Below are positions 381 through 17,574 of a stretch of DNA of 32,557 nucleotides, piece by piece. Origin of the DNA: a virus (taxonomy: Duplodnaviria; Caudoviricetes); IMG/VR virus record IMGVR_UViG_3300018073_000016, positions 1-32,557 of that record; one strand, 5' to 3'. Position 1 is the stretch's first letter. Every line of letters begins with the position of its first letter. The position numbers and the translations under genes were made by a program. The notes beneath the pieces were generated by a model. It saw only the letters and a program-made list of their open reading frames with translations, made no database searches and was not told where the DNA came from.

Positions 381-772
381 GGGTTCACCCGAATGTACGA
401 AATGTATAATCGGCCCCGAAAGCCGGTTGAATCGGCGCTGCCGGTCGCCGTGATATAGTCAGCCGCCGGCCATACCTGCACCGCACCTTTGGCGACGACC
501 GCCGCCATGCCATGATAGGCAGTAGCGGCAATGGCGCCGTTGATCGCCAATGCGGAAATCAGGTCGGCGTCGCTGGCGGTCGGGCTGGGGTTGACGCCGA
601 CATTGATATTGGCGGCGCCTGTGCTGGCGGTCTCGACGTAAAGCTTGACATCGGTGATGATCAGCGGCACGCCTTCCGGGTTGCGGACGAAACCGATTTC
701 ACCGCCGGCAAAAAGAGCAGCGCCGACCAGCGGAATCTCCAGATGACCACTGGCAAAGACCGGCGTTGTCAT
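377..772 (-). CDS. Virion structural protein, possible capsid decoration/cement protein
   Basis: 131 aa, beta-rich, ATGA-coupled directly downstream of the major capsid gene. Confidence 0.5.
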   Translation of the reverse strand: MTTPVFASGHLEIPLVGAALFAGGEIGFVRNPEGVPLIITDVKLYVETASTGAANINVGVNPSPTASDADLISALAINGAIAATAYHGMAAVVAKGAVQVWPAADYITATGSADSTGFRGRLYISYIRVNP

Positions 773-1734: not shown

Positions 1735-1746
1735 TTGAAGCTATCC

Positions 1747-2283: not shown

Positions 2284-2300
2284 CTCGCCTCGCTTGTGGC

Positions 2301-2341
2301 AAATAAAAAACGCCCACCGGCCATTGCTGGCTCGTGGGCGT
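2301..2341 (-). terminator. Hairpin plus U-tract in the scaffold/capsid leader
   Basis: Minus strand ACGCCCAC...GTGGGCGT followed by TTTTTATTT, ending about 18 nt before the scaffold ATG. Confidence 0.65.
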
Positions 2342-2377
2342 CGTGCGCTCTAGGAATATTTAATTTCTGTTGCGTAT

Positions 2378-2406
2378 ATCCTACTCTATATCCACTGCGA
2401 TTTCAA
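2378..2406 (-). promoter_or_regulatory. Sigma70-like promoter for the capsid operon
   Basis: Minus strand TTGAAA (2406-2401), 17 bp spacer, TAGGAT (2383-2378), then an AT-rich stretch. Confidence 0.5.
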
Positions 2407-2602
2407 GACTGGAGAGTTTGACCACATACTCACGCAGATCAAAGATGGCCGTCTCACCGTTGCGCCGCACTTCCAGCAGCAGCAGCCGCCCGTCGATGCG
2501 CGCACAGAGCTTGCCGCGCTCGTCACGCAACTCCGTCCAGACGACGGTCGTGGATGCGGCGACAATGGCCGGTTGGGCTCCGCCCCGTATCCGATCGGTC
2601 AC
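2381..2602 (-). CDS. Small protein, possible degenerate Com-like regulator
   Basis: Likely start GTG 2602 (GTGA overlap with the minor head gene), 73 aa. WTELRDERGKLCARID...LEVRR resembles the Com-type ELRCxxCGKLL...EIKC pattern without most cysteines. Confidence 0.45.
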   Translation of the reverse strand: MTDRIRGGAQPAIVAASTTVVWTELRDERGKLCARIDGRLLLLEVRRNGETAIFDLREYVVKLSSLEIAVDIE

Positions 2603-3582
2603 GGCGCCAACTCCCGAAGCGGCACGCTCCGCAAGGTCGGCCCCCATGTGGCATTGGGCACAATCTGCACGCTGTCCTGTAGCTCAAACTGGCCCAGCCG
2701 CCACGCCTCATATTTGCCCTTGCCCATAATCGACTCCTGCGTGGCGCTATCCTGGCTACGTAGCCAGTCCTCGCCGCGCTGCCACTCAGGTTCAGGTTGG
2801 CCGCGTACAATCGGGATCAGCGCGCATCGGCAATTGGGATGGCTCGGCATTAGCTCGTCGGTCGCATACTTGGTGCCTTCTAGGAGTATGCAGTTGAGGC
2901 ACGTCCGCCGGTCGTGGGCGGCGATGCGCGTATAGCTGGTGACGATGCCGGATGCGATGTACTGCTGGCGGTTCGACTCGTTGTAAACACGGAGCTGCTC
3001 CGTGCGGGCTATCGTCAGCATCCGGTCGAGGCTGCCGGTCATGCCCTCGGCCATCAGCTTGGCGGTCTTGCGCGGCCCCCAACCCAGCGCCACGCCATCG
3101 ACAAGCGCCTGTGTTAAGCCTTGCGCGCTCAAAGGCCATGACTGTACCAAGATGCTATTTAATGGCGTGCCTGCGCCCGTCAGGCCGACCATGTGCTGTA
3201 CGGCGCTGACGGGCAGGCGGTTGAAGGTCGTGGCAACCTGGGCGCTGATGGCCTGGGCGCCGTGGCTGATGCCGGCTGTCGCCATTGCCTGCTGGCCGTC
3301 GCTGATCGTGCTGTTGGCGTAGGCGGTGTATGTCCTTAGCTCGTCGTGGAGTTGCACCAGCAGTTGTTGGTAGCGCACCTCGCCCAGCAGCAGGTTGGGC
3401 GTGACCACGCCGCCGCTCGCCGTAATCTCGGCCATGCGAAAGGCCAACGCCTCGATCTGGCCCATCAGGCGCCGCTCGACGCCAAGCCAACGGCGCGCCA
3501 TCTCGGCCTGTTGGGCGCTGCCGGCGCGGGCGATGCCGGCTTTGAACTGGCGCATAAGGCTGACTACGGTTGACTCAGGCAT
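2599..3582 (-). CDS. Minor head morphogenesis protein (SPP1 gp7 / Mu gpF family)
   Basis: 327 aa with IARTE, D.RTC..C..L.G and HPNCRC motifs, downstream of portal. Confidence 0.88.
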   Translation of the reverse strand: MPESTVVSLMRQFKAGIARAGSAQQAEMARRWLGVERRLMGQIEALAFRMAEITASGGVVTPNLLLGEVRYQQLLVQLHDELRTYTAYANSTISDGQQAMATAGISHGAQAISAQVATTFNRLPVSAVQHMVGLTGAGTPLNSILVQSWPLSAQGLTQALVDGVALGWGPRKTAKLMAEGMTGSLDRMLTIARTEQLRVYNESNRQQYIASGIVTSYTRIAAHDRRTCLNCILLEGTKYATDELMPSHPNCRCALIPIVRGQPEPEWQRGEDWLRSQDSATQESIMGKGKYEAWRLGQFELQDSVQIVPNATWGPTLRSVPLRELAP

Positions 3583-3830
3583 TATTTCTTGGCGTCCACG
3601 GCTCTCGCCCGCTTCGCTGCCGCCGGCGCATACTTCGCCGCCCGGTTGATGATGTTCCTACGCGCTGCGCTACTCTTGGCATGGCCGCGCAGCTTGATGG
3701 CGGAGACGGCGCTCTTACGGTCGAAGACAGGAAACTTCTTGCCCTTGCCCACGCCATGCTTGCGCCGCGCCGCTGCCGAGACGCCGCCCGAACGGGTGCG
3801 ATTCGCTTTGGTTCCTCTACGCTTCGCCAT
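3582..3830 (-). CDS. Small, very basic hypothetical protein (DUF6582-like KFPV core)
   Basis: 82 aa, K/R/A-rich, KKFPVFDRKSAVSAIKL. Overlaps the portal stop and abuts the minor head ATG. Confidence 0.65.
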   Translation of the reverse strand: MAKRRGTKANRTRSGGVSAAARRKHGVGKGKKFPVFDRKSAVSAIKLRGHAKSSAARRNIINRAAKYAPAAAKRARAVDAKK

Positions 3831-5223
3831 TGCCGTTCACCGCTATTGCGGCCCCATTCTGTTGTGCTGTCGCACCATTCTGGTCGAAGTTTCTCTGAGC
3901 ATTCGTCAGCGCCGTCGCCAAGTTCTGCTGCTGCGCGCCCTGTTCCTCGCCAATCGCATCCTCCAGCTCGGCCAGCTCCTGCTCGGTATAGCCTTCCTGT
4001 TGCATCTGCCACAGCAGCGGGATACCGGCCGCCACGCTCTCCTTGCGGATCAGCGCCTGCGTGTAGGGCTGTACCGTCTCCGGCTCGTCAAAGATCGGGA
4101 TGATGGCGTTGTCGTCAACAAGACCCATGCCGGCCACGAGCATCATAAACTGTGCCACCTCGCTCCAGTTGGCAATCCAGCGCGTGATGTACTTTTGCGC
4201 CTTGTGATTGAGCGGCGCTTCCATCGCAATCAGGGCTTCGCCCGACGGGTCGCCGCCCTGCCCGAAGAAGTAGTGTTTGGGCGTCCTCGATATGATGGCA
4301 ATCGCCGTCGTCCACTTGTCGATGGCTTGCAAATAGTTGCTCAGTTCGGTGGAAGCAAACTGGCCGACGCTTGTCGGCTGCTCTTCCTTGCCGGAAGCGC
4401 CGGGTATATCCCAGATGGCATTCGGAGAATTCTTGAACTTGCCCGGCTCGGCCAGACTGATGATGTATCGCTGCGGGAAGGCGCCAAACTCAGCGGCGAT
4501 CATCATATCGGCCAGAATCTTGTTGACGGCATCCTGTGGCCCCAGTACGTTCTGGAGTTCGCTGGTAATCACGCGCCGCTCCCGCCGGAAGTGAAAGACG
4601 GGGATGGTACCGTAGGGATTCGGTTCACTGTCAACACGCACAAAGCTCTTGCCGTTGGATACCTCGTTCCACAGGCCGTTATGGTCGTCAGAACGTATAG
4701 CATTGGTGCTGCGGTAATACTCCAGCCGGTCGGCATAGTAGAGCGTCAGCAGCCGGTGGTCGTCATCGCCGACCCACCACTTGACGGCAAAGCGTTTGCG
4801 GCGCGGCTTGTCGGCCTCATAGAAGAGATGCACGTTGCGGCTGTCGTTGTAATAGGCTTCAGGCTGAGCCGTCTCTTCATCCGGCCAGACCAGCACATAC
4901 GATTCGCCGGTGACGAGCGAGGCCAGATGCACGTCCTCTGATTCGAGGATCAGCTCAGACGAGCCGAGCAGCAGCGCCAGGGCGTCGGTCGCCGCCTCGT
5001 CATCAGCGACCAGGATGCGCTGAAGCTGGATGCGGTCGGCCACGCTATCGACGACGACCGCGCACCAGTTCTGCTGGAAGGTGGCGCTCAGATTCTGGAA
5101 TAGCTCGTTGAGTTGGCGGCTGGCATAGACCAGCGGCTGGTAGCCCTGGTAATAGTTCCAAAGCCGTGTATAGCGCGGCGCTTTATAGAGCAGCGTGGCG
5201 ACGGCCAGTTCGATGTCATCCAT
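3817..5223 (-). CDS. Portal protein (SPP1 gp6-like)
   Basis: 468 aa with YYQGYQ, NWCAVVVDSVADR, NPYGTIPVFHF, QDAVNK, AFPQRY and SGEAL motifs. Follows TerL. Confidence 0.92.
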   Translation of the reverse strand: MDDIELAVATLLYKAPRYTRLWNYYQGYQPLVYASRQLNELFQNLSATFQQNWCAVVVDSVADRIQLQRILVADDEAATDALALLLGSSELILESEDVHLASLVTGESYVLVWPDEETAQPEAYYNDSRNVHLFYEADKPRRKRFAVKWWVGDDDHRLLTLYYADRLEYYRSTNAIRSDDHNGLWNEVSNGKSFVRVDSEPNPYGTIPVFHFRRERRVITSELQNVLGPQDAVNKILADMMIAAEFGAFPQRYIISLAEPGKFKNSPNAIWDIPGASGKEEQPTSVGQFASTELSNYLQAIDKWTTAIAIISRTPKHYFFGQGGDPSGEALIAMEAPLNHKAQKYITRWIANWSEVAQFMMLVAGMGLVDDNAIIPIFDEPETVQPYTQALIRKESVAAGIPLLWQMQQEGYTEQELAELEDAIGEEQGAQQQNLATALTNAQRNFDQNGATAQQNGAAIAVNGNGEA

Positions 5224-6511
5224 TATAGACTCCTCCTGTGCGGCGTGGTGGCTTGCCGTCTAAGTACATTACAGCGTATCTGAGCGCATCGACCCCGTGG
5301 TCATTCAGCTTGAGCGGTTCCTCTTTGTCGGGCCGGCCGTCGGGCGTCGTCTGCCAAACATAGCCCGGCAGCTCCTGCTCGGTGCAGGTCGGCTTGTGCG
5401 CATCGGATAGCGAACCGTCCCGTTCGACCAGTGCGCTCTTGAGCAGGAAGAGGCGCGGCCTGTCATCATGCCCGCGTGCCAAGCGTGCCTGCACCGCCTG
5501 GATGCCGCGTGACACGTCCTTAATCGCCGGCACGCTAGATATACCGCATTGCCTCAGCGTGGCCCTGTCCTCGGCGTCGTGGTCGCAGACAGTCGCCTCG
5601 TAGGATTCGCCCTGCGACAAGAGATTGATTTTGGCGGCATGTTCGGTCACGGTACGTTTGGTCATGTAGATTTCCCGGTAGCGATACGCTCTGCCGTCGC
5701 CGTCAATCGCCCACCATTGGCAGACAAAAGCGTTGACATAGCCGAAGTCGATCACGCGCAGCTTGCGCCAGTTCTGCCAACCGTCGGGCATCCTGTCAAT
5801 CATGTGCAGCGCATCGCTCCAGGTGTCATAGACCACGCCCTCGGCCTGCACCCACATCCCTTCCCGCAGCCGCATCCCCAAGACGCCGGTGATACTTTGA
5901 AGAGTAGCGATATACTCTGGTGGCAAGTAGGGATTGTCACGGGCGGCGCTGTAATGCACACTGGCCTCGCCGCCGTCGATGAGGCGTGTCTTAATCCAGT
6001 GCAGCGGGCTATCCGGGTTGGTCGTATAAAGGATTTGCCGCCAAGAGGCTGCATTGCCGCGTAGCCGTCCCAACAGTTCGTTGTGGTCATCCTCGGTCAA
6101 GGCGTTGGCTTCCTCACCCCAGATCATATCAGCAGCGCCGTCGCCGTTGATGCTGCGTAGCGCCTGCCGTTGGCCTTCATCCTTCATGCCGGCGATAAAG
6201 ATGCGGCTGCCGTTGGCGTAGTGGAATACGAGGTCGGCGGCGTTGTAGCGCACGGACGGGTCATCGCCTATCGCCGTCTTGAGCGCATAGACGACCGATT
6301 TGCTGGCGAACTCACGCGCCTTGCGTAAGGCGATGCCGGTCGAGGATGGATATTTCAACATAAAGCCATGTATTTTCTCAGCCGCTGCCCGGCTCTTGCC
6401 GCCACCGGCAGAGCCGCCATAGACGCAGACCTGCGCCTTGTCCCGCCAGGCGGTCACTTGCCAGGGCATCGGGCTATAGGTCGCTGTCAGTTGTATCTTC
6501 GTTCCATTCAT
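5216..6511 (-). CDS. terL: Terminase large subunit (PBSX-like)
   Basis: Walker A GGSAGGGKS, Walker B WGEEA, coupling motif TTNP, nuclease DFG and DHGVDALRY. Confidence 0.95.
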   Translation of the reverse strand: MNGTKIQLTATYSPMPWQVTAWRDKAQVCVYGGSAGGGKSRAAAEKIHGFMLKYPSSTGIALRKAREFASKSVVYALKTAIGDDPSVRYNAADLVFHYANGSRIFIAGMKDEGQRQALRSINGDGAADMIWGEEANALTEDDHNELLGRLRGNAASWRQILYTTNPDSPLHWIKTRLIDGGEASVHYSAARDNPYLPPEYIATLQSITGVLGMRLREGMWVQAEGVVYDTWSDALHMIDRMPDGWQNWRKLRVIDFGYVNAFVCQWWAIDGDGRAYRYREIYMTKRTVTEHAAKINLLSQGESYEATVCDHDAEDRATLRQCGISSVPAIKDVSRGIQAVQARLARGHDDRPRLFLLKSALVERDGSLSDAHKPTCTEQELPGYVWQTTPDGRPDKEEPLKLNDHGVDALRYAVMYLDGKPPRRTGGVYNG

Positions 6512-6866
6512 CCGGCGTTACCTGTACATATCCTTTGACAATCGCCACATTGATCGGCCCGCCCTCCGGCCCGCTGATTTCCGTCCCCGTCGTATAGCCG
6601 CGTTTCTTGCCGCGTGTGCTGAGCAGGTACTTGACCATGCCCTCGTTGCCGTCCATCACCGCCTGGTACAATTTGAGTTCGCCGATGTCAACTAGCTTCT
6701 CACGCTGCGTTTCGATTTCGTCACGCACCGACTTATAGCGCTCGGCATAGTTGAGAACGGTTTCGGGATGGCAGCCGATGCGGTCAGCGGCCAGATAGAC
6801 CATGCCCTTCGTCTCCTTGAGCGCGGCGATCATCTGCGCCGCTGTGTACTTTTCCTTACGTGCCAT
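6474..6866 (-). CDS. terS: Terminase small subunit (HTH)
   Basis: 130 aa. ALKETKGMVYLAADRIGC HTH, YLLSTRGKKRGY, EISGPEGGPI. Overlaps the TerL start. Confidence 0.75.
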   Translation of the reverse strand: MARKEKYTAAQMIAALKETKGMVYLAADRIGCHPETVLNYAERYKSVRDEIETQREKLVDIGELKLYQAVMDGNEGMVKYLLSTRGKKRGYTTGTEISGPEGGPINVAIVKGYVQVTPDEWNEDTTDSDL

Positions 6867-6926
6867 GTTCTAGGAACCGCTTTGCAAGATGCTGTCGCGG
6901 AAAATCGAATAATTGATCATCTCCGT

Positions 6927-6965
6927 TTGACAGTATATACAGACGACGTTATACTGTATATACAG
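6927..6965 (+). promoter_or_regulatory. Near-consensus sigma70 promoter with paired operator-like palindromes
   Basis: TTGACA (6927-6932), 17 bp, TATACT (6950-6955). CAGTATATACAG at 6931-6942 and the perfect palindrome CTGTATATACAG at 6954-6965. Confidence 0.75.
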
Positions 6966-7068
6966 AGGCGAACGTGAACCGGTGAAGCATAGGAACCTGA
7001 CGGGAATCGCTGCAAGCCGCATCTTATTGACACTCAATCATTAATTGCTCACATGAAAGGTAATACCC

Positions 7069-7482
7069 ATGTACTCTACCCGCAGCAAGAAGGACATTAT
7101 CAAAGACGCACGCGCCACCCTCAAGAAGGCGCTGCCCGGCTGGACATTCAGCCTCACGCAACCTCATTACGGCAGCTTCGACCTCAATCTGATGAGCGGC
7201 CCCGTTGACGCTCTTTTGCCTAGCGAAGGCTGGAAAGACGGCGGCTATGCCCAACTCAATCACTATAGCCTCATGGATGATTCCCGCAGCGTCGAAGATC
7301 GCTGCCATTGCAACGGCGCACAGTTGACGAGAGAAGCGTTTACAGCCGTCTACATGGCAACCAAGATTGTCAACGCCGAGAACTGGGACGAGTCCGATAG
7401 TCAAACTGACTATTTTCATTGCAACTATTACCTGCATGTCTCGGTCGGTAAATGGGATCGCCCGTACAAGGTGAGTGCCTAA
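7069..7482 (+). CDS. LPD29-like (large polyvalent protein-associated domain 29) protein
   Basis: RBS GAAAGG. LKKALPGWTFSL...SGP and NWDESDSQTDYFHCNYYLHVSVGKWDRPY match the LPD29 pattern as I recall it. Confidence 0.65.
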   Translation: MYSTRSKKDIIKDARATLKKALPGWTFSLTQPHYGSFDLNLMSGPVDALLPSEGWKDGGYAQLNHYSLMDDSRSVEDRCHCNGAQLTREAFTAVYMATKIVNAENWDESDSQTDYFHCNYYLHVSVGKWDRPYKVSA

Positions 7483-7678
7483 TATGCCACCGACCAAGCA
7501 CCACATCATTCGCCTATCTGATGAGAACTGGATACTACTCGCCGCGGTGTTTCGGCGAGTAGTACCGATTGAACGATTACCCGCCCACGTCAACCCTGAT
7601 AGTGATTGGCAGATCACCGAAGGGTTGCGCATGATCGCAAGTGGTGAGTTAATCATTCATCTCTCCACGTTTGACTAG
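7475..7678 (+). CDS. Small putative DNA-binding protein (RHH-like N-terminus)
   Basis: TKHHIIRLSDENW strand-then-helix pattern, coupled to the LPD29-like gene. The start may be the ATG at 7484. Confidence 0.45.
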   Translation: MPNMPPTKHHIIRLSDENWILLAAVFRRVVPIERLPAHVNPDSDWQITEGLRMIASGELIIHLSTFD

Positions 7679-8497
7679 CATCATTCCGTATTCATTCGCC
7701 CCTTTAGGAATAACAAGACCTGGCTTGAGCAGGAGTCTATTTTTCTTGAAGGGGCGATAATCTACCTGGTGTTGCCAACGCCCCCATTTGAAAGTGATAG
7801 TTGTAACGTCTGGGTGCTTCTGCCTCAATTCCTCAGCCATCTTCCAACGGCCATCGCCCTGATAATGGGGCGTCATACCGCCTTTGACGGTCATAGTCAC
7901 CGCCTTTTCAATCAGAAAAGTATTAAACAGTATCGTACAGAGTCCATTCTTGAGAACACGCAGACGCAAATCGGTATCGTCGTTATAGAACCCCTCATTG
8001 CGAAATGGCTTGCCGTTGCGGTCGCGGGCATCAGTTTCGATAAGCATATTCGAGTAGACGCGTGTATTGAGATAAAATGGCGGCCGCTTTGACCTTGCGG
8101 GCATAAAAAACCTGTAGTGCATGCCCGCAATAGGAACGTTGCTATAACGTTCGACAAAATCCTCCATAGCGCAGAGTGACGTTCCCGACGCTATCGGTAC
8201 TCTTAGACCACGATTCCAGCGATAGATGCCCTTTATGTTATCGTCCATCGTCCAGAAGCGCGGCGTACCCGAAGCGAGTGCATAATCCCAAATATAGTTG
8301 CGTGTCACTACTAGACCTTTGTCACTATGAGGCAATGTGATGATTTTTCTCTCGTCTATCACGGCTGCATAGTTGTCAAACTCTTGAGGCTCAACAAAAA
8401 CCGTATAAGGAACATTGATTCTATCAAGCTCCTTGACCGTTAGACGGCTATCCCATCTTCCCTTGCTAGGTATGTAAATCGGGTATCTAGGATTCAT
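7649..8497 (-). CDS. GREB1-like / TET-associated-type (TAGT) GT-A glycosyltransferase
   Basis: YPIYIPSKGR, VEPQEFDNY, RNYIWD, FWTMDDNI, RVYSNMLI, YNDDTDL, KGGMT and RWQHQVDY motifs. Lower GC than the flanks. Confidence 0.8.
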   Translation of the reverse strand: MNPRYPIYIPSKGRWDSRLTVKELDRINVPYTVFVEPQEFDNYAAVIDERKIITLPHSDKGLVVTRNYIWDYALASGTPRFWTMDDNIKGIYRWNRGLRVPIASGTSLCAMEDFVERYSNVPIAGMHYRFFMPARSKRPPFYLNTRVYSNMLIETDARDRNGKPFRNEGFYNDDTDLRLRVLKNGLCTILFNTFLIEKAVTMTVKGGMTPHYQGDGRWKMAEELRQKHPDVTTITFKWGRWQHQVDYRPFKKNRLLLKPGLVIPKGANEYGMMLVKRGEMND

Positions 8498-9128
8498 CTA
8501 TCCATCTCTTATCCGCGTGTGGTGTTCCTTCGCGTTCCGGATACCAAACATACTTGGTTTTATCGGTAATTGTCTGCTCTATCAATTTTGCAAATCTAGA
8601 CACATCTTCCTTTGTCGCAAAGTGAACGTGTATTGATTGAAATGTCGATTCTGCACTAGGCGCAAACTCCGGCATCCCTACCCATTCGGCGTTGGGGTCA
8701 TTCGGCGCAAAGCCGCTTGCTACCTGTGCCAATAACTGCTCAAGCTCCATACTGCTATACCCCGCCGCCTCGACCAATAGCGGCTCCCGCGCTTGCAGCT
8801 CTTCCAGAATAGCCGCTAGTTGCGCCTGGTCAGGGTCAGACTGGCGCGCCAGTTCGTTGTCGGCGACGACGTAGGCCAAACTTTCCGATTCGCTGAGATG
8901 GTCAACCACATCGGCGCGGATGGTGTCCCAGCCAAGCGTATGCGCCGCCAGGACGACGCCATGCCCTGCCAAGATGGTGTTGTTGCGTACAACGATGCTC
9001 CGCACCTGTCCGAACGTGGACAGGCTCTTGGCGATGCGTGCGATTTGGGCGTCGCTGTGGCGGTTATAGTTGCGCTCGTGGCCGTGAAGGTCGGCCAGGT
9101 TGATGATTTGATTCTTGACAGCTTGCAT
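8487..9128 (-). CDS. ParB/Srx-like N-terminal domain fused to a small GT-partner domain
   Basis: Likely start ATG 9128 (track uses TTG 9143). RNYNRHS..QI..I..SL..FG, ILAGHG, ADN motifs. C-terminal EWVGMPEF...VHFAT.ED..FAKLIEQ.ITDKTK..WYP. Confidence 0.8.
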   Translation of the reverse strand: MQAVKNQIINLADLHGHERNYNRHSDAQIARIAKSLSTFGQVRSIVVRNNTILAGHGVVLAAHTLGWDTIRADVVDHLSESESLAYVVADNELARQSDPDQAQLAAILEELQAREPLLVEAAGYSSMELEQLLAQVASGFAPNDPNAEWVGMPEFAPSAESTFQSIHVHFATKEDVSRFAKLIEQTITDKTKYVWYPEREGTPHADKRWIDES

Positions 9129-9213
9129 AGCCGTACCTGTCAAAATGTAGTCCCGTCTACTTGTGTACCTGTCAACATTCGTGCTATATACCTAGCAGAT
9201 AAGGAGATATACA

Positions 9214-9447
9214 ATGCCACAAATCACAGAAGCCGCTGAAGAGTTGGAGGAGCGGCGCCAGGAATACGAGCGTAAGCTAGACCAGCAGCGTGATGCTACT
9301 CTTCACCGCTGTCATATTCCTCAGACGGCGGCAGGAAAATATGCGCCGGCATCCAGGCCGGTGCTGCCCCTAGCTCATCCTCACGCTGCCGAACCTTCTC
9401 TTTGTACTTCGCCAACTCTGCTTCCAGCCATTTGCGCTCCCGATTGA
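9214..9447 (+). pseudogene. Possible truncated plus-strand gene
   Basis: Strong RBS AAGGAGATATACA-ATG and a charged helical first 28 codons, after which the frame runs antisense into the 9296-9601 gene. Confidence 0.35.
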
Positions 9448-9601
9448 GCGTGCGGATGTAGGTTCGCATCCCGGCCAGCTCAGCGGCATGGCCGCGCTTG
9501 AGTTCGCTGATGTGGGCGCGGTGGGCGCCGTCGAGCAGCAGCAGGCCCACGAAATAAACTCCCAGGTAGACGATGGCGGCGAACCAATTATCCATGCTCA
9601 T
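9296..9601 (-). CDS. Membrane-anchored coiled-coil hypothetical protein
   Basis: N-terminal TM helix then a charged coiled coil. ATGA-coupled to QueT. Confidence 0.7.
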   Translation of the reverse strand: MSMDNWFAAIVYLGVYFVGLLLLDGAHRAHISELKRGHAAELAGMRTYIRTLNRERKWLEAELAKYKEKVRQREDELGAAPAWMPAHIFLPPSEEYDSGEE

Positions 9602-10086
9602 GGCTCAATCTCCAGTAAGGGCGTCTTGCGTAGCACGGCATAACCTATCAGATAGAGTGTCGCCTCGCTGGCAAAGACCAGCGCCACCGTAGGCCACATC
9701 GGAATGCCGCCGCCCAAGTACAGCGGAAAGAGCGCCACGCCGACCGCCACAAGCGCCGCCTGCACGACCATAGCCAGCCAGGGACGGCGCCGCAACCGGT
9801 ACGCAATCAGGGCGGCGCCGTAGCTCACAATCGGCATGGCGACAAAATCCCACGGGCCGAAAGGCGACGTGATATTGGCAAGTGCCACGCCGACCGCCAG
9901 CCCTAAGCCGATGACCGGCGAGACCAACGCCAATGGCTTGAGCAGCCCGGCGAGGCGCAGTTGTAGCGGGCCAAAGCTGATCGGCGCCAGCGCAATCGTG
10001 ATCACCGCATAGGCGGCAGCCACCAGCCCCGCATACACAATCAACCTAACTTTAGTAGTGGCTCTTGGTTCTCGTACTGCTTCCAT
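9598..10086 (-). CDS. queT: QueT-family transporter (queuosine precursor S-component)
   Basis: AGLVAAAYAVITIALAPISFGPLQLRLA, G..LANITSPFGPWD, about 5 TM helices, 162 aa. Confidence 0.85.
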   Translation of the reverse strand: MEAVREPRATTKVRLIVYAGLVAAAYAVITIALAPISFGPLQLRLAGLLKPLALVSPVIGLGLAVGVALANITSPFGPWDFVAMPIVSYGAALIAYRLRRRPWLAMVVQAALVAVGVALFPLYLGGGIPMWPTVALVFASEATLYLIGYAVLRKTPLLEIEP

Positions 10087-10640
10087 GCCGCTAATGTCTT
10101 TTCAATGCCCTCAAAACGTTGGCGAGTGCCATCACAGGTAAAGCGTTCGCTGCCGGGTAAAAGTCTAAACATCTGATAGCGCCGGCGCCAGTTGACGCGT
10201 CCAATGTGGATATGTAGCCCCATCTCTTGCCCACGCTGGATCATCAGGGTGGCGGCGACGCTTTCCTTCCATGCCGTTGTGCCACCAATGAAGAGCGCCG
10301 CCGCGCTGGACGGTATATTATGCGCCTCGCTGCCATCCTGCGCCACGTAGGCCAGCGGCCAGCCATTCATTTGCGGCGCCCATTCAGCATAACGGGCCAA
10401 CGTAGCGACGGCATCGCCGACCACATCCGGCACCGCCACGAATAGACAGGTTGGGCAATAGGCGGTCATGCCGTCCAGCCATGCGCTAAAGCGTGCGCCG
10501 TCAAAGCCGGTAAAGGCGCAATTGTCGCCCGCCCACGGCAGCCCGCCGGCGATGCCGCTTGGTACGCCTTTGTGTTTGTAGCTGCCCAGGATGCCATAGA
10601 CGCCCTCACTGATGCCGCCAACTGATACCAGGAATCTCAT
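10041..10640 (-). CDS. Small TGT/DpdA-like transglycosylase-fold protein
   Basis: Ordered motifs DNCAF, PDVVGD, VAQDG, FIGG, HIGRVN, DGT parallel the TGT-family DSGxF / D / QG / GG / HxxG / catalytic D series. Overlaps queT. Confidence 0.6.
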   Translation of the reverse strand: MRFLVSVGGISEGVYGILGSYKHKGVPSGIAGGLPWAGDNCAFTGFDGARFSAWLDGMTAYCPTCLFVAVPDVVGDAVATLARYAEWAPQMNGWPLAYVAQDGSEAHNIPSSAAALFIGGTTAWKESVAATLMIQRGQEMGLHIHIGRVNWRRRYQMFRLLPGSERFTCDGTRQRFEGIEKTLAAWKQYENQEPLLKLG

Positions 10641-10799
10641 TTATCCGTAAGCCGCCCAAATCAGCATGGCGCAGACGATAATCCACAGCAGCGCCAAGCA
10701 CAGCCAACGCGTTGAATATACGCGCTGTACTTGCAGCTCGGCCAGCAGCAGCGCAAATGTAATCACGCCGAGGAAGGCCAGCAGATCGCCGCGTGGCAT
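10641..10799 (-). CDS. Small 2-TM protein (holin candidate)
   Basis: Below the track cutoff. MPRGDLLAFLGVITFALLLAELQVQRVYSTRWLCLALLWIIVCAMLIWAAYG. Its TAA directly abuts the next ATG. Confidence 0.55.
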   Translation of the reverse strand: MPRGDLLAFLGVITFALLLAELQVQRVYSTRWLCLALLWIIVCAMLIWAAYG

Positions 10800-10803
10800 G
10801 GCA

Positions 10804-10953
10804 CTAGTTGCCCGTCAAAATGCCCACATCTGTCAGCAGAATGGCGGCGGCGAACAAGAGCGGCACAAACGCCTCGGCAATATGCGCCAGGCCAAAGATG
10901 GCGCCGACGACGGCCAGCAAAAGTGATACGACAATCAGCGGACGACTCATCAT
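10804..10953 (-). CDS. Small 2-TM protein (holin candidate)
   Basis: RBS AAAGGAG then MMSRPLIVVSLLLAVVGAIFGLAHIAEAFVPLLFAAAILLTDVGILTGN. One gene downstream of the lysin. Confidence 0.6.
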   Translation of the reverse strand: MMSRPLIVVSLLLAVVGAIFGLAHIAEAFVPLLFAAAILLTDVGILTGN

Positions 10954-10963
10954 ATTGACTCCT

Positions 10964-11941
10964 TTAATCTGCCGCCAGCAACATTGGCTGCGTGCGGCGA
11001 ATACGCTCATGCGCCAGTTCGATATAGGCAGGGTTGAGGTCGATGCCCAGGCCGCGCCGCCCATGCTTGAGCGCAACGGCGACGGTTGTGCCGCTGCCGG
11101 CGAACGGGTCAAGTACCGTATCGCCCACCCTGCTACCGGCCAGGATGCAAGGCTCAACTAGCTTGGTCGGCATCGTGGCGAAGTGGGCGCCCTGATAACT
11201 TTCCGGCCCCAATGACCAAACTGACCTGCGATTTCGTGTGCTTGCCGTAACGCTATCCGTCCTGTCAGAACGATGTTGCGCCGCGCTTTGGCCAGGTAGG
11301 ATGTGATCCGAGACAGGCCCGCTACGGGCAAAGGTGGCGGCTTGTCCTGTCCATACTTGCGCCGGTTCAGCGATGGCATCCGCATCGTAGAAATAATTCG
11401 CGCTCTTGGTCAGCAAAAACACTTGCTCATGCGCCTTGGTCGGCCTGTCGGTGACGCTTTCCGGCATCGGTGCTTTCTTTGCCCATATCACCTCGCTGCG
11501 TAGCCACCAGCCATCCGCGCGTAGGGCAAAGGCGACGAGCCAGGGGATGCCAAATAAATCCTTTTGTTTAATACCAGTGGGAATAATCTTCTTTGGTTGT
11601 CCGCCCAAATGCCCGCGCCCCTTGCCGCCATAGCCAACCGTAGACGCGCTAAAGTCTTGCCCCGGATTTCCCGTGTTGGCGTAACTGTCGCCCAAATTCA
11701 GCCACAGAACGCCATCATCCCGCAGCAGCCGCCGCACTTCTCTAAACACGTCAACCAATTTGGCGACGTAGGCGTCGGGCGTTTCCTCCGTGCCAACCTC
11801 AAGCGGCTTATTAGGGTCGGCATTGTCCAAGTACGCCCTCAAGCCGAAATACGGCGGACTCGTCACGCAACATTGCACGCTGCCGGCGGGAAGCGTTCGC
11901 ATCACTTCGATGCAGTCGCCTTGTAGGAGTTGGTAATTCAT
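10964..11941 (-). CDS. DNA methyltransferase, N4C/N6A beta class (SPPY type)
   Basis: Likely start ATG 11941 (ATGA overlap). TSPPY, LWLNLGDSY, WAK..PMPESV.DRPTKAHE, HFATMP, VLDPFAGSGT. Confidence 0.93.
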   Translation of the reverse strand: MNYQLLQGDCIEVMRTLPAGSVQCCVTSPPYFGLRAYLDNADPNKPLEVGTEETPDAYVAKLVDVFREVRRLLRDDGVLWLNLGDSYANTGNPGQDFSASTVGYGGKGRGHLGGQPKKIIPTGIKQKDLFGIPWLVAFALRADGWWLRSEVIWAKKAPMPESVTDRPTKAHEQVFLLTKSANYFYDADAIAEPAQVWTGQAATFARSGPVSDHILPGQSAAQHRSDRTDSVTASTRNRRSVWSLGPESYQGAHFATMPTKLVEPCILAGSRVGDTVLDPFAGSGTTVAVALKHGRRGLGIDLNPAYIELAHERIRRTQPMLLAAD

Positions 11942-13788
11942 AGCTTCAGCCCGAGAAGAATTGCCCACGTCTGCGGGTCAACGCGGCCCTTCGGCATCGG
12001 GCAGTCCTCGCGGTACGTGCCGTCGGCGTTGTGCAGGCGAATCTCCAGGTGCAGATGCACGCCGCTGCTGTTGCCGCTTGTACCGAGCAGCCCGACCGTT
12101 GCGCCCGCCTCTAGCCGTATGCCTTCGAGCGCGCCCGGCTCGTCGAGGTGGCAATACATCGAATAGCAGCCAAGCTGAGGGTGGTCGACGCGCACGTAGT
12201 GACCATACGCCGCGTCAAAATCGGAGTACGCCACGATGCCGGCGGCGAGGCAGCGTACCGGCGTCCGTGAGGGTCTGCCGCCGAGGTCGGTTCCGTTATG
12301 GCCCCAGATGCCAAAGCGGGCATAGTTGGCGGCGTTCTCGCCCCAGTGCTGCGTGATGACCGAGCCTGGCAGGGGATGGGTCAAATCCCCTGCCGGCTCC
12401 GGTCGTGGAGGAAAGGGTGGTACGGGCACTGTAATGCCCTCGGATATTGTCCATTCGTACTCAATCCAGGTGGATGTGTGGATGCCCGGATTGCCGCCCT
12501 TGCCCATGCCGATGCCGTGGGCGGCGTCGCTGGGCGCGCCGTCATCGACCTTGATTGAGAACTCGTTGAGCGAGGCCGACATCGGGAAGTCCCAATTATA
12601 GGTCGCATACGCCTGGTCGGCCTTGCTGATGACGCGGCCGCTGCCGCTGGGCCAACTGACGAGCATCAGCACGCCGGCCACTTCCTGCTGGGCGCGCTTG
12701 ATTGTCCCTAAAATGTGGTGATCCGGCCCGACGGCATCGGCCTCAGCCTCGTCGAGCCAGGTCGCCGAGGTGATGCGCCAGTAGCCTACGCCTTCCGGCG
12801 GCTTGGCAAAGTCGAAATGCACGCCGCGGGCGATCAGGCGCGGGTCGATGTCCCGCGTTGGCTCAGGCGGTGGCGGTGTTGGCCGTGGCGGCTCAGGTTG
12901 TGGGTTGGGTGGCGTCGGGCGTGGCGGCTCCGGCAACTCCGGTAGCGGCGAGATGTAGCCGTGGCGTACAGCGTCGCTAAAATCGTCCTGCACGCCGTCT
13001 TTGTTGTGCAGCTCGTACTTATCGCCGCGCCAGCGGTAGAGCGCCAGGCTGCACACCTTCTGCGTGCCGGGCGTCATGTTGTGTTCGTTGACCGACTGAT
13101 AGGCGTTTTGCACCCAACCCGTATTGCCATCGAGCCAGGCGTCGTCGCCCTGGTCGGTTTCGGTCACATGCACCGGCCGCGTGGCAAACTTGGGCGGGAT
13201 CGCCTGAATCGTCTGGTAGATAACCGGGAAGTGCCAGTACCAGCCGTGCTGCTTCTCCATCGACCAAATCAGATTGGGGTCGGCGCCGTGCGTGTATCCG
13301 TGTACCGCCAGGCCGTCACAATCGACGATGGCGGCCAGCATCTGCTTGTAATAGCTCAGCCAGTCGATGCCGCTGGTATTGTCCCACGGCGCCACAGCGG
13401 CGGTCAGCACCTCGGCATCGGGCCGTTCGTAGGTGATCGCCTGGTAGCACAGGTTGAAGCAGTCGGCGTAATCTTCCGGCTCAATCGTGTCGCCACCAGG
13501 CCATTCCTGGCGATGGTTCGGCTCGTTGGCGACGATAAAGACGTTGACCGCTGGACAGCGGGCGGCGAAGGCGGCGCAGCGTTTGGCAAAGGCCGGATAG
13601 TCGGGGCGCAGTGGGATGGTGCCGTTGGGATACCAGCCGTGATTGAGCCGCACAATCCAGTTGATGTCCGAGCGTATGGCGCCATAGTTGGGCGGTTCGT
13701 CCGTGACCAATACGGCATCGACGCAATAGCCGCCGGCGGGAACGATGGCGTGGCCGTCACGGTCGTGGACGGAGTAGAGCAGCGCCAT
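11938..13788 (-). CDS. Putative endolysin: GH-A-like TIM barrel + Pro linker + unknown domain + M23 peptidase
   Basis: ANEPN, VHGY and VTETD (clan GH-A-like), Pro-rich linker, C-terminal HNGTD, YGHYVRVDH, YCHL and SSGVHLHLE. Confidence 0.8.
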   Translation of the reverse strand: MALLYSVHDRDGHAIVPAGGYCVDAVLVTDEPPNYGAIRSDINWIVRLNHGWYPNGTIPLRPDYPAFAKRCAAFAARCPAVNVFIVANEPNHRQEWPGGDTIEPEDYADCFNLCYQAITYERPDAEVLTAAVAPWDNTSGIDWLSYYKQMLAAIVDCDGLAVHGYTHGADPNLIWSMEKQHGWYWHFPVIYQTIQAIPPKFATRPVHVTETDQGDDAWLDGNTGWVQNAYQSVNEHNMTPGTQKVCSLALYRWRGDKYELHNKDGVQDDFSDAVRHGYISPLPELPEPPRPTPPNPQPEPPRPTPPPPEPTRDIDPRLIARGVHFDFAKPPEGVGYWRITSATWLDEAEADAVGPDHHILGTIKRAQQEVAGVLMLVSWPSGSGRVISKADQAYATYNWDFPMSASLNEFSIKVDDGAPSDAAHGIGMGKGGNPGIHTSTWIEYEWTISEGITVPVPPFPPRPEPAGDLTHPLPGSVITQHWGENAANYARFGIWGHNGTDLGGRPSRTPVRCLAAGIVAYSDFDAAYGHYVRVDHPQLGCYSMYCHLDEPGALEGIRLEAGATVGLLGTSGNSSGVHLHLEIRLHNADGTYREDCPMPKGRVDPQTWAILLGLKL

Positions 13789-14576
13789 TAGGCCGCCCCT
13801 TCCATCTCAAACAAGGGCAATTGCATAGCGGCCTCGTCAATGCGCTTCTGGGCGATGGCGAAATAGGTTGGGTCAAGTTCCACGCCGATAAACCGCCGTC
13901 CCTCTTTGATGGCTGCAACTCCCGTTGTGCCGCTGCCCATCGTGAAATCTAGTACCGTATCGCCCGCGTTGGTGTAGGTGCGGATGAGGTACTCGTAAAG
14001 GGCGACAGGCTTTTGGGTTGGGTGAACGCGCAAAGTGTTATTGCATTCGCCAACCTGAAACGGCAATCGAATTACACTCAGTGGATAGCGGGAATTGCCA
14101 TCGGCTTTGTGCGAAAATTCCTTGGCGTAATCTTGCCGACAACCTATAGCAAACTCACGCGGAGCGGTTCCTCGATTGCCGTTTGGCTTGCCTTTGTCCC
14201 ACATAACAGGGTTGTATTTATGGCCTGTTTGCCCAAAAACCAATATGCTTTCGTGACTTCGCTTTGGCGCAATTCGGGAATGCAAAGGGCTTGACGCGCT
14301 CTGCTTGTCCCACACCCATTCATGCCGAAATTGCTCAACGTTGCTCATAATCAAGCGACTCGCAAACGGTTGACTTGCCGTCGTGACAAATGCGCCTCTT
14401 GGCTTGAGTAGGCGTTTCACCTGCTCCCACATCTCATCAAGCGGAATTATACTGTCCCACTTACACGCCGTTTGACCGTTGCCATAGGGCAAGTCAGTAA
14501 TCACCGCGTCCACGCTTCCCGCCTCAAGCGTCGGCAAGATGTCGAGGCAATCGCCCTGTATCAATTGGTACGCCAT
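13788..14576 (-). CDS. DNA methyltransferase, N6A/N4C beta class (DLPY type)
   Basis: TDLPYG, WDSIIPL, ASQPF, HPTQKPVAL.EYLIRTYTN, VLDFTMGSGTT. Confidence 0.93.
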   Translation of the reverse strand: MAYQLIQGDCLDILPTLEAGSVDAVITDLPYGNGQTACKWDSIIPLDEMWEQVKRLLKPRGAFVTTASQPFASRLIMSNVEQFRHEWVWDKQSASSPLHSRIAPKRSHESILVFGQTGHKYNPVMWDKGKPNGNRGTAPREFAIGCRQDYAKEFSHKADGNSRYPLSVIRLPFQVGECNNTLRVHPTQKPVALYEYLIRTYTNAGDTVLDFTMGSGTTGVAAIKEGRRFIGVELDPTYFAIAQKRIDEAAMQLPLFEMEGAA

Positions 14577-14577
14577 T

Positions 14578-14760
14578 CTAGTTCTGCCTCTTGTTGTAAT
14601 CGACCACAGCCATCTCCTGCCGCTGCTGGGCGAGCTGTTCCAGGATGGCGTCCAGCGTGCGGCGGATCATATACAGCTCATCCTGGATATGCACCAGGCG
14701 ACCGAGGATGTCGGCCTGCGTGATGAGTTCCACGCGCTCCGTGCGTAGGTTGTCCTCCAT
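14578..14760 (-). CDS. Hypothetical coiled-coil protein
   Basis: 60 aa, RBS AGGAGG, tightly packed in the operon. Confidence 0.6.
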   Translation of the reverse strand: MEDNLRTERVELITQADILGRLVHIQDELYMIRRTLDAILEQLAQQRQEMAVVDYNKRQN

Positions 14761-14942
14761 TAGGCCGCCCTCCTAAATCGCTGCTGGCCGTGACAGTGGG
14801 CGCATTTCTCGTCCCGGCAGGTGTGGAAACGATGCCGTCTATCGCCGCGCAATACGCATTGCCCACCACATGGCGCGGCAGAGCGACAGGCCATGTCAAG
14901 CGTGGTCGGATAGGGTGGCGGTGGCAGTTTTTCACGTGTCAT
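14760..14942 (-). CDS. Small Cys/His-rich putative Zn-binding protein
   Basis: C..AAPCGGQC...HRFHTC...CAHCH. ATGA and TAATG couplings on both sides. Confidence 0.6.
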   Translation of the reverse strand: MTREKLPPPPYPTTLDMACRSAAPCGGQCVLRGDRRHRFHTCRDEKCAHCHGQQRFRRAA

Positions 14943-15133
14943 AGTTGGGCCTTCTTGAGCGCATCGAGCGAACGCCTCAATTGCTCAATGATGATCGCCT
15001 GCACTCGGCTTTGCTGGTCGTACATCTCGATCAGCTTGGCGATGGCGCGGGTATGGCTGCGATCCAATAGGTAGAGCGCCAACGCGGCGACAGAGGTGTA
15101 CCCGACGATCCAACCGGCAACATTCCAATCCAT
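14939..15133 (-). CDS. Membrane-anchored coiled-coil protein, first gene of the late arm
   Basis: Likely start ATG 15133 (MDWNVAGWIVG...). One TM helix plus an amphipathic helix. Confidence 0.6.
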   Translation of the reverse strand: MDWNVAGWIVGYTSVAALALYLLDRSHTRAIAKLIEMYDQQSRVQAIIIEQLRRSLDALKKAQL

Positions 15134-15154
15134 GATTTGCGTTTTACGGTGGAG

Positions 15155-15317
15155 AAATAAAAAAACGGCTGGCGGTGTGGATATACCGGGCAACCGTTCA
15201 GCGCAGCCGTATAGAGGCTTTGATGGAGGCGGCGAAGAACAACAGAAGTCGGGCCGCCGCGTAAACGGTTGCCCGACTTCTACCGGCTATGATAGACCCA
15301 TGCGCGCGCTATGTCAA
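15155..15317 (-). promoter_or_regulatory. Putative late promoter plus structured attenuator-like leader
   Basis: TTGACA (15317-15312), 17 bp, TATCAT (15294-15289). The leader has overlapping inverted repeats and ends in a U-tract. Confidence 0.65.
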
Positions 15318-15452
15318 CCAACTGTGAACCATAAACACGCGTAGCCATATTGAGCGCGCCGGCAGACGCCACCGGCCGCCGTTCCCGCCTGGCCCCGCCG
15401 CCCAAACGGGACGGGACGAGGCCGTGACGGGTCGGTTAGTGGCTGGGCTTGG

Positions 15453-16775
15453 TTATGCGAGGTGTGGGTATTCACGGATGCGCCCATCAAAGGCAATCGG
15501 TCTGCCGTCCTGCTGAATGAGGTTCGTTTTCATATAGACGGGCAGGTGGATCGCTTGTGCTTGCTGCCAAAGACTCATCCACCATTCAAGCGGCGGCGCA
15601 AATGCGGGCGTTTGGCTGGACTGGCTTGCGCCACCCATCACCAGCCAATCAAACATATCAAGGCTTGAGAATGTGAGGCGCTCCATCATCGGCTCACATG
15701 ACAACCAGGCCACGCCCTCATAGCCCGATGCCCGAATCTTGCGGAAGGCTTTTTCGGCCCGATCCACCGCGTACTGGTAGTCAACCGTTGTCCCGATCCA
15801 GGTGTTCGGCGGAAAGCGGAACTCGGCCATGCGGATCGGGAACTTGGTAAGCAGGAGGAAAGTCCACTGCGGATTGGCCGCAATCTGGGCGAGAACCGCT
15901 TCAATCCATTCGGTCGGAACCCACTTGCCAAAGAGATCGGCCATTGAGCAGGTAAAGACATTGCGAAGGCCCATCGCCGTAACTGGATCATCGATTCGAG
16001 ATACGTCCGGCGCTTTTGTGTTCTCAGGAAAGGCGAGGCGTTCGGGATAGAAGGCGGGCGAGAAACGTTCGCCATCGGGCAGATGCTTATAGATATGGTT
16101 GGCGATGTCCCTGGCATAGCAGTACGCGCAATTGTGAAGGCATCCGGTGATCGGGTTCCATGTCCAGCGCGCCCACTCTACATTATCGTTGGTGGCGTTG
16201 AACTGGCCAGTCCCGCTCATCTCCAGCAGATAGGTGCGCTCATCGTAGCTTAGGCGCTCCCACTCATCGACCAGATAGGCTTTGATGCCGGATGGCTTGC
16301 GGATAGTCAAGGGCTGCACGCTTGCGTGATTCTCTTGCCGATAGGCTGCGACCGTACTCGTTACATGAGCCGCCGTCACTTTGCCTTCCGGCGCACTCTC
16401 GACCACTCGCCCCCAGACTTCTCGCTGCTCCTGCGGCCGCAATTTAGCTTGCGCTATCGGACGAAGTTGGCTCTCCGAAATTGCATTTTCAACAATTTGT
16501 TGACTCTCGCTGATATTCGCTAAAACCTCTCCCGCATCGGCCAGTTGGTAAATTCTTGCCCCTGTATACTCCGCAAAGACAGGGCATTCTTCGCGGATGC
16601 AATCCGGCAGGTTGTTATAGCCCAAGACGGCAAAGCCGCGCCGGCGCTTGAAGGTAGCGAACTGCAACATCAATGCCTTGCTGGAATCGTTGATATGCTT
16701 GAGATAAAGACGCGCTTCTCCCTCGGTCATCTCGCCATTGCTGACGGCCAGTTCAAAGCCCATTTGGTGATTCAT
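15453..16775 (-). CDS. DUF5131 / phage Gp37Gp68 family (radical-SAM-like) protein with N-terminal extension
   Basis: VEWARWTWNPITGCLHNCAYCYA, FTCSMADLFG, LLTK.P.RM, WIGTTV, WLSCEPM, WLVMGG. Confidence 0.88.
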   Translation of the reverse strand: MNHQMGFELAVSNGEMTEGEARLYLKHINDSSKALMLQFATFKRRRGFAVLGYNNLPDCIREECPVFAEYTGARIYQLADAGEVLANISESQQIVENAISESQLRPIAQAKLRPQEQREVWGRVVESAPEGKVTAAHVTSTVAAYRQENHASVQPLTIRKPSGIKAYLVDEWERLSYDERTYLLEMSGTGQFNATNDNVEWARWTWNPITGCLHNCAYCYARDIANHIYKHLPDGERFSPAFYPERLAFPENTKAPDVSRIDDPVTAMGLRNVFTCSMADLFGKWVPTEWIEAVLAQIAANPQWTFLLLTKFPIRMAEFRFPPNTWIGTTVDYQYAVDRAEKAFRKIRASGYEGVAWLSCEPMMERLTFSSLDMFDWLVMGGASQSSQTPAFAPPLEWWMSLWQQAQAIHLPVYMKTNLIQQDGRPIAFDGRIREYPHLA

Positions 16776-17574
16776 CAAATAGCCCCTTCTGAAAAGGAGA
16801 CACTTTGATGCCCCCGTTTAAATACTTCTCGGCGTTCTTGCGCCATTCCTCATAGTGAACTATGTTCTCAGTACTGCGCTTGAGACTGACTTTAGCCGTG
16901 TTCATGCCATATAACATAATAAACTCCAGTAAGCGGCCTTCTTCACTGCGAATATAGGTCGCCTTCTTTAGTGCGGCAAGATTATCGAGATGCTCGATAA
17001 GGGGAACGGTGAGCCACTCAGGGGGATCATCATGGTACGTTTTCTTGATGACACCTGGTGACTTATGACGTTTATAGGCATTGAGCGAAATATTAAAAAG
17101 TAGGTCGATGCGGTCAAACCGATAGTCAGATTGCAGTTGTTTAAAAAGGTCAACACCCGCGAGCGCGTCAACGATGCCATTGGGATCGCAATAGATCAAA
17201 CCATGAAAGCGGCCCGACCATCTGAGATTACACAGCCACGGCAGGATCACTTGTTGATACTCACCGTGAATAATATCGCAGTTAACAAGAGATTCTTTTG
17301 ATAAGTTCTCAAAATTCGGCTTATCTTTTTCACAACAAAGCTGACGGAAATTGTCGTGAAAATGTTTGGCAAAATGACGGTTGAGGATAAGCGGCGAACC
17401 CGCTGCCCCTTCCTTGCTGTGTCCTGATCCCGCTGTACTATCGATCACGACAAGGAGCGAATCGGGCTTAAGCGTGCAGAGGCTTCGCCATCCATTTGTG
17501 CAGCCATCGCAAATCATTTGTAGGTGTCTTTGTTTGGTCGGTGTATAGTTGCTATCGCCATGCGCCCGTCTCAT
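16753..17574 (-). CDS. Three-Cys-motif partner (TcmP)-like, Rossmann MTase fold
   Basis: YTPTKQ, VIDSTAGSG..GSPL, CEKD, IYCDPNG. About 270 aa, directly upstream of DUF5131, lower GC. Confidence 0.65.
   Translation of the reverse strand: MRRAHGDSNYTPTKQRHLQMICDGCTNGWRSLCTLKPDSLLVVIDSTAGSGHSKEGAAGSPLILNRHFAKHFHDNFRQLCCEKDKPNFENLSKESLVNCDIIHGEYQQVILPWLCNLRWSGRFHGLIYCDPNGIVDALAGVDLFKQLQSDYRFDRIDLLFNISLNAYKRHKSPGVIKKTYHDDPPEWLTVPLIEHLDNLAALKKATYIRSEEGRLLEFIMLYGMNTAKVSLKRSTENIVHYEEWRKNAEKYLNGGIKVSPFQKGLFDESPNGL

Follow-up and report, generated by a model that had tools for sequence, protein, structure and literature searches.

Phages in which a DpdA gene is accompanied by an importer gene have been described before. 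In Hutinet 2019 (PMC6884629), group 3 has DpdA and YhhQ only, in Clostridium phage CDKM15, eHP-6 and Sinorhizobium phage phiLM21, and the DpdA and YhhQ accessions in these rows are consecutive. The same source proposes precursor uptake for DpdA-only phages, reports that of the two assayed Orion showed no modification and Salmonella phage 7-11 a trace (50 dADG per million nt), and leaves open whether phages modify DNA with scavenged 7-deazaguanine. A different arrangement is seen in Streptococcus phage Dp-1, whose DNA is reported to carry dPreQ1 (PMC6884629): its QueT gene (gp6) overlaps its DpdA gene (gp7) and lies inside a full synthesis cluster. Phage CAjan makes its own precursor, and deletion of its yhhQ is reported to have changed nothing (PMC7544227).

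Here we analyzed one stretch of viral DNA (the window), which is the entire 32,557-nucleotide IMG/VR record IMGVR_UViG_3300018073_000016, a linear virus fragment of an estimated ~45% completeness that encodes capsid, portal, terminase and tail proteins; a second record (L002), 99.96% identical, spans positions 44-15899. In the window a QueT gene overlaps an ORF of 199 aa. The locus resembles the phages with DpdA and YhhQ only in having a DpdA-type gene without synthesis genes in the record, and differs from them in that the importer is QueT. It shares the gene overlap with Dp-1 (the two QueT proteins are 29% identical), but in Dp-1 the synthesis cluster is complete, and its DpdA1, at 311 aa, escapes the profile of the present family. 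We give a probability of about 0.65 to the reading that the overlapping genes form an import-and-insert cassette, in which QueT imports a 7-deazaguanine and the 199-aa protein swaps it into phage DNA, blunting restriction. The salvage strategy itself is already known from the phages with DpdA and YhhQ only, from the Dp-1 overlap and from GenBank "DpdA-like" labels. A preliminary description of this DNA stands as regards a TGT/DpdA-like barrel, the missing Zn motif and the linkage to importers, but what it describes is less new than it implied. What gives the locus its value is a minimal DpdA subfamily, apparently not described before, together with cultured phages in which salvage can be tested directly.

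The QueT gene and the overlapping ORF

The 162-aa ORF matches PF06177 (E 1.3e-24; bit score 87.5, cut-off 33.7), in agreement with its earlier designation as a clear QueT-family gene overlapping the enzyme ORF, and both ORFs occupy the minus-strand positions that the preliminary description had assigned to them (Table 1). Measured from the first ATG (10086) the overlap is 46 nt, and from an in-frame TTG at 10044 it is 4 nt, the stop codon included; the PF06177 match begins at QueT residue 16, just past this TTG. The adjacency is repeated in three further loci (L087, L088 and L249), and in L087 an ATG stands at the same overlapped place, where it may have arisen as a side effect of a conserved Trp codon. 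QueT and QrtT are reported to carry preQ1, queuine or Q (PMC11130926).

Table 1. Genes and predicted functional residues of the overlapping pair; fractions refer to the 130 aligned family sequences
Feature	Position	Strand	Conservation or basis
TGT/DpdA-fold protein, 199 aa, predicted 7-deazaguanine transglycosylase	10041..10640	-	ORF, PHROG 15826, AlphaFold2, fold searches, profile alignment
QueT, ECF-type substrate-binding membrane component, 162 aa, predicted preQ1/queuine-type importer	9598..10086	-	PF06177
D39, predicted general acid/base	10524..10526	-	128/130; aligns to DpdA1 DSGAF; = Z. mobilis TGT D102, Salmonella DpdA D95
F43, four residues past D39			F/Y in 127/130; corresponds to DpdA F99 (stacking aromatic)
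D72, predicted base-edge recognition	10425..10427	-	130/130; = TGT D156, DpdA D130
Q101, glutamine not DpdA histidine	10338..10340	-	130/130; at TGT Q203 / DpdA H181; aligns to His of DpdA1 PCFHFGE
G119-G120, glycine loop	10281..10286	-	127 and 130 of 130; = DpdA G206/G207
H145, likely hydrogen-bond partner of D170	10206-10208	-	129/130; aligns to DpdA1 KLHAF
D170, predicted nucleophile	10131..10133	-	129/130; aligns to DpdA1 SCDSS; = TGT D280, DpdA D256

All six TGT-like motifs picked out earlier (DNCAF, PDVVGD, VAQDG, FIGG, HIGRVN and DGT) are present in that order in the 199-aa ORF. Pfam gave no match for this protein and the NCBIfam and PDB sequence searches returned nothing useful; PHROG 15826, of unknown function, matched it at E 6.8e-31. 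The family is large, comprising 1009 proteins, with 2709 clusters at 50% identity at E<=0.001. The AlphaFold2 model (pLDDT 96, pTM 0.92) predicts a (beta/alpha)8 TIM barrel in which the conserved family residues sit at the ends of barrel strands. When this model was compared with 48,161 PDB chains, the top 20 held four TGT-family chains plus Cap10: arcTGT 1iq8 at rank 3 (Z 13.3, rmsd 3.3, 192 residues aligned), bacterial TGT at 7, Cap10 at 8 (Z 12.7), QTRT2 at 14 and DpdA at 20. Because pyruvate kinases tie with arcTGT at the top (Z 13.7 and 13.6 against 13.3), this comparison speaks for the fold without singling out a family. In the search of viral models, the top named matches were phage queuine tRNA-ribosyltransferases (rank 2, E 3e-4, and ranks 9, 10, 15, 21 and 22), and a 259-aa phiST protein was a weak match (rank 17, E 6e-3).

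The protein had also been described as a small TGT without the Zn-binding part, and the CxCxxC motif was indeed found in none of 130 family members. A structural Zn site (CxCxxC...H) is reported as a feature of bacterial tRNA TGT and bacterial DpdA (PMC10164549), and phage DpdA has already been reported with two of the four Zn ligands lost (PMC5699537).

Predicted catalytic residues and placement among TGT-fold families

We compared an alignment of 130 family sequences (the window protein and 129 of 150 representatives, 21 having been left out for lengths outside 170-260) with an alignment of 13 DpdA1 sequences. The profile comparison gave a probability of 95.2 (score 60), against 14.7 for a reversed DpdA1 template and 24.6 for the best of 40 block shuffles; deeper alignments alone worked, since a shallow family alignment gave no match to single DpdA sequences. 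In this profile alignment, which is not a coordinate superposition, D39, D72 and D170 align with DpdA1. The predicted barrel, the profile match and the retained catalytic aspartates together uphold the TGT/DpdA-like designation. The putative correspondence between phage DpdA1 motifs and Salmonella DpdA numbering (Table 1) rests on motif order; residue roles, including that of DpdA H181, follow PMC10164549 and PMC5699537, and D95A and D256A are reported to abolish exchange in Salmonella DpdA (PMC10164549). By its three aspartates, the aromatic residue and the Gly-Gly loop, the family is predicted to belong to the TGT/DpdA superfamily.

Within that superfamily, its relationship to DpdA1 appears through profile-profile comparison alone. 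The family HMM misses DpdA1, DpdA3 and DpdA4 examples and bacterial TGT, while the DpdA1 HMM detects Dp-1 gp7 (8e-32) and 7-11 gp032 (3e-12) and neither Sonali gp81 nor StevieRay gp54. The phage DpdA1 proteins of 9g/CAjan type (phiG7 gp16, Sonali gp87) resemble the family in the catalytic-core profile match and the three aspartates, but are ~300 aa long with a His where the family is ~200 aa long with a Gln, and the two types stand side by side in Sonali, phiG7, R29Z and L006. Salmonella phage 7-11 gp032, a short protein of 234 aa, can be aligned to the family in register, with DNxAF and PDVxG in common, but is not detected by the family profile (E 31; pairwise profile probability 19%) and has His in place of the Gln. 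DpdA4/DUF6610 (HVTV1_69; PMC10516641) and DpdA3 (phiST CGPG_00065) are likewise described as small TGT-like barrels; taken as single sequences neither gave a significant alignment to the family, and the profile comparison with CGPG_00065, as a single sequence only, gave a probability of 0.2. DUF6610 was the nearest named ESM Atlas cluster (0.91; TM 0.56/0.70). Identity with DpdA4/DUF6610, at which this hinted, was rejected, as PF20314 matched none of 114 family members and HVTV1_69 itself matched at 3e-56; PF01702 (bacterial TGT) likewise matched none of the 114. Dag1/Dag2 glycosylases were also considered, and their described Lys-Asp catalytic pair is unlike the residues of this family.

Out of 50,697 GenBank phage records, an identical set of 27 came back from each of three tblastn queries; nt-1 (DpdA2) is absent from them, and none is a phage assayed in the table of Hutinet 2019 (PMC6884629). 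A search for relatives of Sonali DpdA returned itself alone. The GenBank entries named "DpdA-like tRNA-guanine transglycosylase" (Sonali gp81, Aoka gp40 and StevieRay gp54) belong to the family at 33-42% identity, so the actinobacteriophage members are known by annotation, but their adjoining importers are labelled hypothetical or membrane proteins: StevieRay gp53 and Aoka gp38 are Vut_1, and Aoka gp39 is QueF-like. Two further annotations look wrong, namely "ssDNA-binding protein" for the CRP-701 member (L262:4959-6084), which adjoins a VUT gene, and "DarB-like antirestriction protein" for the ZS04 member. Our literature search found no description of the minimal subfamily (reviews beyond that search may mention it), and searching the supplements of Cui 2023 and Hutinet 2019 for the names or accessions of member phages gave no match. 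A large subfamily of ~200 aa, with Gln for the DpdA His and outside the DpdA1, DpdA3 and DpdA4 examples tested, thus looks new and is apparently undescribed.

Importer linkage and precursor supply

The preliminary description had called for a neighbourhood survey, and this revealed a family-wide linkage to importers. The survey covered 253 loci (the best 80 in each of three sets of matches, 565 viral, 563 metagenomic and 143 genomic, plus 3 from a QueT query and 10 GenBank regions), which form 179 clusters at 90% identity; because the loci are the best 80 of each match list, all counts lean to close relatives. Within 1 kb of the enzyme gene in these best-80 loci, Vut_1/YhhQ was found in 66 of the 179 clusters and QueT in 4, one being this phage and another (L249) having been found through QueT; QueC was found in 13, QueF-like proteins in 11, QueD-like in 8 and QueE in 6. 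On the same basis, 98 of the 179 clusters had at least one 7-deazaguanine gene within 1 kb and 81 had none, including 21 with <600 bases of flank on one side. Importer matches numbered 70 within 1 kb (306 kb of near flank) against 2 in 1,398 kb of far flank, a contrast that the nominal p of 1e-49 overstates, since the clusters share ancestry and neighbours went into building the Vut_1 profile, which favours near matches. Pfam confirmed Vut_1 in 11/11 such neighbours, QueT in 3/3 and QueF in 2/3 of the QueF-like proteins tested. On a FastTree phylogeny of 177 of the 179 clusters, of moderate support, QueT-bearing members occupy three positions (L002 with L087, L088, and L249), each beside Vut_1-bearing members. 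That two unrelated importer families occupy one slot is the best indication of an enzyme dependent on imported 7-deazaguanine. That a generic TIM-barrel gene merely happens to lie beside a transporter would accord with the lack of a Pfam or PDB sequence match and with the fold ties to unrelated barrels, but is hardly credible given the near-to-far contrast, the shared slot and the conservation of TGT residues in order.

In keeping with the earlier claim, neither tblastn searches using two phage reference sets nor Pfam QueC turned up folE, queD, queE or queC in the window; because the record is ~45% complete, this absence holds for the record and not for the whole phage. The record likewise yielded no second DpdA. 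Importer and enzyme are both carried by the cultured phages StevieRay, Aoka, ReqiPine5 and CRP-701 and by G006; the importer of G006 is QueT, and this genome has terminal repeats but a completeness estimate of 49%. A genome-wide search of these five for QueC, PTPS/QueD, FolE and QueA found each in 0/5, the positive controls being detected; a DpdA1-like query, which had no positive control, gave no match in them.

These absences bear on the reading that the enzyme is a DNA insertase but not a salvage-only one, either because synthesis genes lie beyond the sequenced fragment or because the precursor comes from the host, with QueT an accessory like CAjan YhhQ. The incompleteness of the record allows for this, as do the position of QueT within the Dp-1 synthesis cluster, the dispensable yhhQ of CAjan (PMC7544227) and a locus (L006) that has the cassette and a que cluster together. 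We nevertheless regard it as quite improbable: both contig ends fall within head-tail and tail genes, so the gap most likely holds structural genes; QueC, QueD and FolE are missing from all five related cassette genomes; and full-length QueC was found in 1/101 genomes of the candidate host class (that of G001; host assignment uncertain), the remaining matches being weak and partial. Chloroflexota is a hint only as the host: among the best 80 of 143 genome-bin matches, the closest to the enzyme include Anaerolineales and Caldilineaceae bins at 50% but also one of Saccharibacteria at 51%, and for the terminase 2/301 genomes of the G001 class gave matches of 45-48% identity, against 33-42% for the ten best cultured-phage rows. 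TGT was present in 5/5 and PF02361 in 5/5 genomes of this uncertainly assigned class, PF02361 being a family that spans other ECF transporters as well. Provided the host hint holds, scarce QueC together with TGT and PF02361 fits salvage. A search for tRNA genes found none, Rfam gave no match at 7000-13000, preQ1 riboswitches included, and promoter and terminator counts were at chance level.

Several neighbourhoods are of interest in their own right. L082:4035-5519 (Aoka gp38-40), L151, L155, L230 and L062 share a cassette of Vut_1, a QueF-like protein (~105 aa, PF14489) and the minimal DpdA; the NADPH motif of QueF seems to be missing from these QueF-like proteins, which may thus convert imported preQ0 to archaeosine or preQ1. 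Short divergent QueD-like proteins adjoin the enzyme in L180:8691-9026, L175, L025, L063, L059, L039, L067 and L086, several of them keeping HGH and missing the QueD cysteine, reminiscent of the DpdL decarboxylase as described in PMC10516641. In L267:15-2768, QueT (E 6e-41) immediately precedes a TGT-like protein that is more distantly related (profile probability 85%), and ahead of this pair are two genes that by eye resemble Cas7/Cas5 but have no Pfam match. Members in many Solirubrobacterales bins (L178-L220) have no nearby importer or que gene and share a common gene context, which may be an integrative element. In phiG7, which has DpdA1 and a que cluster, the family gene is broken into two ORFs immediately ahead of the DNA polymerase (L085:7714-8306), and Vibrio phage R29Z has it intact at the same site.

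Target of the enzyme and neighbouring window genes

In the import-and-insert reading, QueT would supply the infected cell with a 7-deazaguanine base from outside, probably preQ1 or preQ0, presumably using the EcfAA'T module of the host, and the enzyme would exchange it for guanine by the TGT route, with D170 as nucleophile and D39 as acid/base. The target would probably be phage DNA, its modification would blunt host restriction enzymes, and the phage itself would have no precursor synthesis genes. DNA is the likelier target, since the nearest relatives are phage DpdA and not bacterial TGT, the partners are those of phage DNA pathways, no GUN-anticodon tRNA gene occurs in the 253 loci (2.56 Mb), and in L075 the enzyme gene, which follows queC-queE-queD, is the sole DpdA-like match of the locus.

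Q101, in place of the DpdA histidine, counts against the import-and-insert reading. As the glutamine of TGT, it would suit a minimal TGT that inserts the imported base in host tRNA, tuning translation during infection, and QueT and YhhQ are reported as bacterial tRNA-queuosine salvage importers, some carrying queuine (PMC11130926). A tRNA target would also leave the short protein non-redundant in the four clusters (Sonali, phiG7, R29Z and L006) where a canonical DpdA1 is co-present. We consider such a tRNA enzyme unlikely, however, as the profile probability is 0.7 against six bacterial TGT-type sequences and 95 against DpdA1, the missing Zn motif belongs to a domain that is reported to mediate TGT dimerisation (PMC5699537), and neither GUN tRNA genes in the 253 loci nor QueA in the five cassette genomes were found. 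Moreover, phiST DpdA3, proposed as the DNA insertase of a fully modified phage (PMC10516641), likewise has a Gln in its equivalent motif (CPQGE).

The target cannot be read from residue conservation, because in Cap10 these catalytic residues are retained by a protein that binds a modified protein. As described (type IV CBASS; bioRxiv 10.1101/2025.04.06.647259), Cap10 shares with the present protein the TGT fold, the His/Asp pair and the base-reading aspartates, but it belongs to host defence, has 325 residues and is bound to a modified CD-NTase, and no such operon is found here. A Cap10-like barrel that binds or transfers 7-deazaguanine bases or deazaguanylated proteins could serve in counter-defence, hampering type IV CBASS or Qat. 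The rank of Cap10 in the fold search and its catalytic pair like H145/D170 would suit this role, as would the many members without any supply gene and 12 clusters with QueC alone. It is nonetheless very unlikely, in that importing extra precursor is ill-suited to a sink, free bases are what the QueF-like, QueD-like and QueE partners produce or convert, and no CD-NTase-like partner stood out among 51 recurring neighbour clusters, part of which were scanned against Pfam.

Returning to the import-and-insert reading, an anti-restriction benefit is plausible and is its weakest step, given the Gln for His, the coexistence with DpdA1, Cap10, the absent or trace modification in Orion and 7-11, and the dispensable yhhQ of CAjan. 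The coexistence implies that the short protein is redundant unless its motif or target differs, and the target may thus differ from that of DpdA1. As a tentative and rather doubtful proposal, the family could form a fifth, minimal DpdA subfamily of thousands of clusters that depends on scavenged precursor and has interchangeable importers, YhhQ having been replaced by QueT at least three times, its target being a DNA motif not seen before, the tRNA of the host or defence proteins that carry deazaguanine.

The family offers a clean test of the question that Hutinet 2019 left open. StevieRay, with importer and enzyme and no QueC, QueD or FolE matches, grows on M. smegmatis, which is reported to have no queuosine genes (PMC6884629), so modification should appear only with fed precursor. 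If the reading is true, the 199-aa protein, exchanging bases without Zn, would rank with the smallest insertases of TGT fold and might find use in DNA labelling, and the DpdA marker would extend to a large set of phages now annotated hypothetical.

At 7649-9143 of the window (minus strand), 450 bases downstream of QueT, a ParB-like gene is followed by a TAGT glycosyltransferase (PF20691, E 1e-35), the pair being a candidate second DNA-modification module; TAGT recurs in L024, L036 and L241. Two N6/N4 DNA methyltransferases (10964-11968 and 13788-14576, minus strand) flank the lysin, and among the other recurring neighbours of the family methyltransferases turn up most often (12/165 representatives). 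Finally, at 15453-17574 (minus strand), a DUF5131 radical-SAM-like protein adjoins a weak match to TcmP-like three-Cys-motif partner proteins.
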